Of a stretch of DNA of 64,000 nt, positions 58,855 through 59,338 are shown in pieces (the first letter of the stretch is position 1; every line of letters starts with the position of its first letter). The translations under genes were made by a program, and so were the position numbers. The notes under the pieces were generated by a model. It was not told the origin of the DNA. It saw nothing but the letters and a program-made list of their open reading frames with translations, and did not search any database. The stretch comes from Escherichia coli (lineage in GTDB: Bacteria > Pseudomonadota > Gammaproteobacteria > Enterobacterales > Enterobacteriaceae), in assembly GCF_044647545.1 (NCBI RefSeq), contig NZ_CP172818.1. The stretch is one strand, 5' to 3'.

Positions 58855-59338
58855 TGATAATCCACCCGTAATGTTGCGTAAGCCGAAAAATTCGTATCGC
58901 TTAACACAGCATCACTCGCTTTTACCGGTACGGCCTCCAGCTTCGGCTTTTGCGTAAAATCAGTGGCGTTGATAGCAGCGGAGTATTGAGTTTAAAACGC
59001 TGACCATCGTGCTGAAGCTCGATACCAAAACCGGGTACATCAGTTTTAATTGCTGCATCATTAAAACTGGTTTGTGTACCAGTCCAGGTGAGGGTCATCT
59101 CCCAATCTGGATGACGGGTCGTCGAGTCACAAGTGAGTTCATATGGCACCTCTTTACGACCATAGTTGCCGTTGATGTCGTCGATAATGAGATCGCGAAA
59201 TTCGACTTCAATGGTTTTACCACCGCTGATGCTACAGGTTGGCGGTGACAATAATGTCCCGTGAAAGGTGATGTCTTCATCAGCAGCATGAGCTATGGCG
59301 CTACTGACACAAAGCAGGGTTAAGAAAGTCTTTCTCAT
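58851..59338 (-). pseudogene. yfcQ: Fimbrial subunit-like gene with -1 frameshift near 3' end
   Basis: 138-codon ORF ends in non-fimbrial tail RKSRSWRPYR; alternative frame carries fimbrial C-terminus SAYATLRVDYQ and its TGA overlaps the yfcP ATG; span is 488 nt, one short of in-frame. Confidence 0.6.

Follow-up and report, generated by a model that had tools for sequence, protein, structure and literature searches.

Reading frames of yfcQ and the predicted product

The window analyzed here is a stretch of 64,000 nt from Escherichia coli (NCBI RefSeq assembly GCF_044647545.1, contig NZ_CP172818.1), and the gene in question is yfcQ, which lies near one end of it. YfcQ is a minor subunit of Yfc, a core cryptic chaperone-usher fimbria. 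In the window, yfcQ is split into two reading frames by the loss of one base, and it belongs to a 2,252-nt segment of K-12-type sequence (hereafter, the block) set into a chromosome of sequence type 648 (ST648). The elements of the gene are as follows.

58851..59338, minus strand: remnant of yfcQ, 488 nt compared with 489 nt in K-12
59338..58922, minus strand: 5' open reading frame (ORF) of yfcQ, 138 codons; residues 1-120 are YfcQ and the last 18 are out of frame
58976..58854, minus strand: the 3' 41 codons of yfcQ (...ATLRVDYQ), in a frame other than that of the 138-codon ORF
58977..58978, minus strand: 1-nt deletion in yfcQ, a single T where orthologues have TT, in codon Leu120 (CTT)
58991..58993, minus strand: A3 run, the site of the deletion proposed in the first-pass annotation; same as in the orthologues and not the lesion

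With K-12 YfcQ as the tblastn query, residues 1-121 align at 59338..58976 and residues 122-162 in another frame at 58976..58854, which puts the frame switch at 58976-58978, between residues 121 and 122. Residues 1-121 of the ORF are 99.2% identical to K-12 YfcQ, including MRKTFLTLLCVSSAIAHA. The 3' end of the 138-codon ORF reads ...LLSTPLILRKSRSWRPYR, and its unrelated basic tail of 18 residues is LSTPLILRKSRSWRPYR. The neighboring frame encodes TQYSAAINATDFTQKPKLEAVPVKASDAVLSDTNFSAYATLRVDYQ, with ...AINATDFTQKPKLEAVPVKASDAVLSDTNFSAYATLRVDYQ as the C-terminal part, and its TGA (58853..58851) overlaps the ATG of yfcP (58854..58852) as ATGA. Frames and tblastn thus agree on what the first-pass annotation of this DNA had proposed, namely, that a single-base deletion cuts the C-terminal strand (...VDYQ) off the rest of the subunit. 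The non-fimbrial basic tail and the overlap of the second-frame stop with the yfcP start, which it had also described, are both seen in the sequence, and its account of the split frames is correct save for the position of the lesion.

The Pfam Fimbrial profile (PF00419) matches the encoded 138-aa ORF over positions 1-105 of 151 (35.9 bits) and the T-restored YfcQ over positions 1-151 of 151 (50.9 bits). The encoded ORF does not contain a full-length Fimbrial domain with its C-terminal strand. In other respects yfcQ has the attributes of a fimbrial subunit gene: judged from the identity to K-12 YfcQ, it has an N-terminal signal peptide and is orthologous to a named subunit, and a chaperone gene (yfcS, 59840..60592) and an usher gene (yfcU, 60612..63263) lie upstream of it in the same operon. 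Both are nearly identical to ST648 genes annotated as chaperone and usher, with one missense difference, at 60695 in yfcU.

Translation that passes the lost T would run into 18 unrelated residues and terminate 68 nt early. The product would lack the final 41 residues, among them the C-terminal strand that ends in VDYQ, and the ATGA overlap with yfcP would not be reached, with probable loss of translational coupling from yfcQ to yfcP. In the chaperone-usher pathway, the C-terminal strand of a pilin completes its incomplete immunoglobulin-like fold and anchors the subunit in the cleft of the periplasmic chaperone. As both folding and retention by the chaperone depend on this strand, a product of 138 aa would be non-functional, neither chaperoned nor polymerized.

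Position of the lost base

In a three-way alignment, K-12 MG1655 and HS-01 read CCGCTTGCT and the window reads CCGCTGCT; over a wider span, the two orthologues have CCGCTTGCTATC and the window has CCGCTGCTATC, with the remaining T at 58977. The first-pass annotation had assigned the deletion to the A3 run, but at the run the window, K-12 and HS-01 all read TTTTAAACTCAATACTCCGC. The lost T lies 14 nt downstream of the run in gene orientation, still inside the interval 58925..58993. An A added to the run also gives 162 aa, but with TQYSA instead of the authentic LNTPL, that is, with five residues wrong, and this repair was rejected. Restoring the T gives a 162-aa protein identical to HS-01 YfcQ, from which the K-12 protein differs by E98K. 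The earlier expectation that a one-base repair yields a 162-aa fimbrial subunit is therefore borne out in length and in the match to PF00419 (positions 1-151), but the base is the T in CTT and not an A. The E98K difference corresponds to window position 59047, where the block has A and K-12 has G; HS-01 also has A at this position and is the single best match for yfcQ, one position nearer the query than the next-ranked genomes.

Distribution of the lesion among genomes

The lesion was searched for in 5,426 complete E. coli genomes with a 52-nt probe across the yfcQ deletion junction, using every 28-mer that spans the deletion. The junction was found in none of the 5,426. K-12-type yfcQ is present in 1,114 of these genomes, and all sampled matches span 482 nt compared with 481 nt in the query; none of the 1,109 genomes in which the yfcQ query matches at near full length has the deletion junction. 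In HS-01, yfcQ shows 99.8% nucleotide identity to that of the window, the one gap being the only difference. Among approximately 15 billion proteins, the exact 138-aa yfcQ and 97-aa yfcP products occur on only one NCBI contig (4,499,902 bp). Exact scans of metagenome contigs and of the contigs of representatives in the Genome Taxonomy Database (GTDB) did not return the deletion, which is a weak negative, as these scans had no positive control. Orthologues with the same frames and the basic tail, named beforehand as the observation that would speak against a disrupted gene, are likewise absent from all 5,426 complete genomes.

This distribution bears on the idea that the frameshift is functional, serving programmed ribosomal frameshifting or a phase-variable contingency switch for the minor pilin. 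We regard this as hardly credible. Nothing beyond the two overlapping frames speaks for it, and by inspection there is neither a repeat tract nor a slippery heptamer at CCG CTG CTA. Moreover, the lesion reduces TT to T within CCGCTTGCT, none of the 5,426 complete genomes shares the two-frame layout, and the neighboring genes are broken in unrelated ways.

A K-12-type block in an ST648-type chromosome

Outside the block, the chromosome in the window is of ST648 type (phylogroup F). Positions 1-32562 are 100.000% identical to NZ_AP022098.1, and in comparison with ST648 there are three differences in 32500-57400 and two in 59674-64000; the first 52 kb are free of differences. The ST648 locus of NZ_AP022161.1 matches the window by blastn at 59674-64000 and 55747-57421 only. 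Between these two segments lies the block, which includes most of yfcR.

57422..59673, minus strand: K-12-type block, 2,252 nt, comprising the 3' two-thirds of yfcR, yfcQ, yfcP, yfcO and the yfcO-smrB spacer
59335..59823, minus strand: chimeric yfcR, in frame, with ~50 codons of ST648 type and ~112 codons of K-12 type

In place of the block, ST648 has 4.3 kb that hold the rest of yfcR, intact but divergent yfcQ, yfcP and yfcO, and the Septu pair ptuA/ptuB. The block is only ~55% identical to the native ST648 alleles at the nucleotide level. Over its whole length, the chimeric yfcR shows 63% identity to ST648 YfcR and 90% to K-12 YfcR, and it gives a full-length match to Pfam Fimbrial. The best match to the block among complete genomes, at 98.8% identity, comes from K-12-type genomes, and no genome in the RefSeq complete set matches it fully. 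The Septu pair is absent from the window because the block occupies its place. In the ST648 sisters, PADLOC finds ptuA (E = 1.6e-168) and ptuB (E = 1.1e-94) between yfcO and smrB; these genes lie at 11840-13841 of the NZ_AP022161.1 locus, equivalent to the junction 57421/57422 in the window. The source contig, at 4,499,902 bp, compares with 4.87-5.31 Mb for ST648 genomes with identical flanks, and its record does not belong to the RefSeq complete set; both points count in favor of an assembly artefact.

Junctions of the block

59674..59676, minus strand: left junction, inside yfcR; only AAT is common to both types, and the homologous register is kept
57413..57421, plus strand: right junction, at the end of smrB; the 9 nt TTGCCCTGA are common to K-12 and ST648

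At the left junction, GGTGGAGTTCGGTAAT adjoins ATGATTGCTG: towards yfcS, at higher coordinates, the sequence is of ST648 type, and towards yfcQ it is of K-12 type. The switch is sharp: the discriminating T at 59677 is of ST648 type, and from 59673 the sequence is of K-12 type. No complete genome contains the yfcR junction (the best full-length match is 85.7%), and an exact scan of metagenome contigs did not find it either, again a weak negative from a scan with no positive control. On the right, the homology between K-12 and ST648 ends at the smrB stop codon, and identity to ST648 is 100% from 57421 downwards. Both junctions keep register, and each lies at the innermost point at which K-12 and ST648 still align.

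RecA-dependent exchange requires tens of identical bases. Since homologous exchange needs longer identity than the 3 and 9 nt available here, a natural crossover would be expected in the long, near-identical flanks; indeed, K-12 is 97.6% identical to the window over 1-52152. Illegitimate joining would not hold register at both ends, and an alignment-driven computational join does exactly that. A genuine homeologous swap bounded by microhomologies, which would have brought in a K-12-type tip/adhesin module, deleted Septu and left an indel-rich cluster through error-prone repair synthesis, is in our view improbable.

Private differences within the block

Compared with K-12, the block carries ~10 indel and ~13 substitution events, all of them private, and five of the events are complex, with an indel next to a substitution. 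The density of events is 126 times that of the flanks. Indels make up about a tenth of mutations in E. coli mutation-accumulation work; at an indel share of 10%, the probability of 10 indels among 23 events is 3e-5, and at a generous 20% it is still 0.009. By inspection, the substitutions are nearly all non-synonymous. Methylation-motif errors of Nanopore sequencing (Dcm/Dam) were considered as a source of the indels, but by eye only 2 of the ~10 lesions lie at or beside CCWGG. Apart from yfcQ, the events fall mainly in two further remnants.

58318..58854, minus strand: remnant of yfcP, broken by several indels
57493..58316, minus strand: remnant of yfcO (adhesin), with substitutions and indels

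In yfcP, a complex lesion at 58561-58569, made up of two 1-nt deletions and substitutions, introduces a TAA stop behind codon 97; at 58471-58472, another single nucleotide is lost, together with a substitution. In yfcO, there are five clustered substitutions at 58266-58280, an insertion of 2 nt at 58229-58231, losses of 1 nt at ~58077, 57988 and 57903, and an insertion of 3 nt (CTG) at 57846-57848. The yfcO-smrB spacer has AT for G at 57447.

These data contradict the earlier view of yfcQ as a lone lesion in an otherwise normal operon, given that yfcP and yfcO hold ~9 further indels and yfcR is chimeric. That yfcQ was inactivated in an ordinary yfc operon by an isolated and recent 1-nt deletion, through homopolymer slippage in the A3 run, is accordingly very unlikely. 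A one-base repair does give a full-length 162-aa pilin; however, the alignment refutes slippage at the run, which is unchanged while the missing base is the T of CTT, and the additional indels in yfcP and yfcO stand in a block that is foreign to the chromosome as a whole.

Private differences around the block

Outside the block, every private difference is located in 52153..63948; the probability that the first 52 kb would contain none is 9e-5. At 52153, between mnmC and yfcL, the 6 nt CACATT, present in all ST648-type genomes, are lost exactly where K-12 has a 71-nt insert resembling a repetitive extragenic palindromic (REP) element, a junction for which the complete E. coli genomes gave no match. 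Upstream of yfcV, the window has lost a C at 63948, where K-12 is one base shorter too. The change at 60695 is a private G>C that replaces Pro by Ala near the C-terminus of YfcU. The usher gene itself (60612..63269, minus strand) is intact, with an ORF of 885 codons; it is of ST648 type and ~20% divergent from K-12. The remaining differences are in one gene.

53016..53824, minus strand: yfcA (TauE/SafE family exporter), with lesions at 53745 and ~53765

A change from A6 to A5 frameshifts yfcA after ~19 codons, and an A>C substitution lies 20 nt away. Both lesions are private, since at neither position do K-12 and ST648 differ. Taken together, these differences suggest that consensus quality is lower in the surroundings of the block and that K-12-like sequence has had an influence there.

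Origin of the block

A 2,252-nt K-12-type block joined at microhomologies in an ST648 chromosome points to an assembly chimera rather than to natural pseudogenization of yfcQ. We consider it probable that the block is a chimeric stretch of low quality made during assembly. Foreign sequence, from a K-12-like reference or from a minor second strain, would have been spliced in at the limits of an alignment or of an assembly bubble and never properly polished. The frameshift would then be no property of the organism, and the real locus would resemble that of the ST648 sisters, with intact, divergent yfcR, yfcQ, yfcP and yfcO followed by ptuB and ptuA. Consistent with such an origin, the foreign segment is bounded at the limits of alignability, the local error density is raised, and the segment occurs in one record only. 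A natural pseudogene fits poorly with a lesion private to one contig, with indels in 10 of 23 events and with flanks identical to those of the sisters. A generally high error rate of the assembly was rejected as an explanation, given the 52 kb of the window that show no difference from a sister genome. Furthermore, a yfc cluster broken in three genes is atypical, because yfc is the only core fimbrial cluster that was intact in all genomes examined by Wurpel et al. 2013 (PMC3559732).

The most serious competitor is a real recombinant, that is, an ST648 isolate that exchanged the distal yfc genes and Septu for phylogroup-A-like donor DNA in which yfcQ, yfcP and yfcO had already decayed; alternatively, the tract was copied by error-prone repair synthesis. 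In that case, yfcQ would be a genuine pseudogene in a dead tip/adhesin module. The sequence does stand in a deposited chromosome with flanks of perfect quality, so the record is not generally error-ridden, and the reading frame of the chimeric yfcR is maintained. That the substitutions are almost all non-synonymous is what one would expect in the absence of selection, and the natural yfcU pseudogene of K-12 demonstrates that lesions in yfc occur. On the other side, both crossovers lie within identities of 3 and 9 nt at the edge of homology with register kept, and the ratio of indels to substitutions (~10:13) is far from natural spectra. Moreover, neither the 5,426 complete genomes nor the collection of 15 billion proteins contains a donor or sibling with any of the lesions, and the flanks show zero divergence from the sisters, so that the lesions cannot have accumulated in place. 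A real recombinant is therefore unlikely, though less so than the other alternatives.

Several observations nevertheless weigh against an assembly chimera. The artefact is inferred from the sequence. The changes in the block are not directed towards the ST648 allele, whose base is found at only 4 of 14 substituted positions, about the level of chance. A K-12 filler polished with the strain's own ST648 reads was rejected on this count and because the edits are not enriched in islands of similarity between K-12 and ST648; the origin of the noise in the block is left unexplained by the polishing idea. Elsewhere the window retains insertions as long as 7 nt compared with K-12, and a naive pipeline that takes its consensus from a reference would therefore not suffice. 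Finally, allelic exchange and decay are real processes in genes for fimbrial tips and adhesins.

Relation to known fimbrial systems and significance

The closest known relatives of the window yfcQ are those of K-12 (WP_001232541.1) and HS-01 (WP_203030239.1), with 99.6-99.8% nucleotide identity and with operon order (yfcR-yfcQ-yfcP-yfcO) and ATGA overlap with yfcP both conserved. Unlike these, the window product has 138 rather than 162 aa, and its Fimbrial domain is missing the C-terminal third. Among solved structures, the best relative of the repaired YfcQ by sequence is PapF, the tip adaptor pilin of the P pilus (7lhi_F, E = 0.003; 2w07_B, E = 0.46). The likeness, of a minor tip pilin in a Pap-like operon with a terminal adhesin gene, is suggested by a weak similarity that covers residues 5-123 only. 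The native distal yfc genes of ST648 (NZ_AP022161.1: WP_000678931.1, WP_000822661.1, WP_022645930.1 and WP_012311634.1) occupy the same position between yfcS and smrB, with flanks identical to the window, but they differ from the block in that all four are intact and accompanied by two Septu defense genes, the nucleotide identity being ~55%. The yfcU pseudogene of K-12, an usher gene with an internal stop, is a natural lesion in the same operon as yfcQ. It consists, however, of one nonsense change shared by the K-12 lineage, whereas the window has an intact usher and numerous private lesions, with a high share of indels.

The locus presents no biological novelty: whether an artefact or an ordinary pseudogene, it falls within known kinds. 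The main import of the finding is quality control of the record. The broken yfcQ, yfcP and yfcO, the chimeric yfcR and the missing Septu pair should not be taken as biology until reads confirm them, since at stake are misreadings such as the loss of Yfc fimbriae or of a defense system in an ST648 strain. If the block is real, it would be a group of pseudogenes of an ordinary sort within a cryptic fimbrial operon, unusual only in its recombination junctions.
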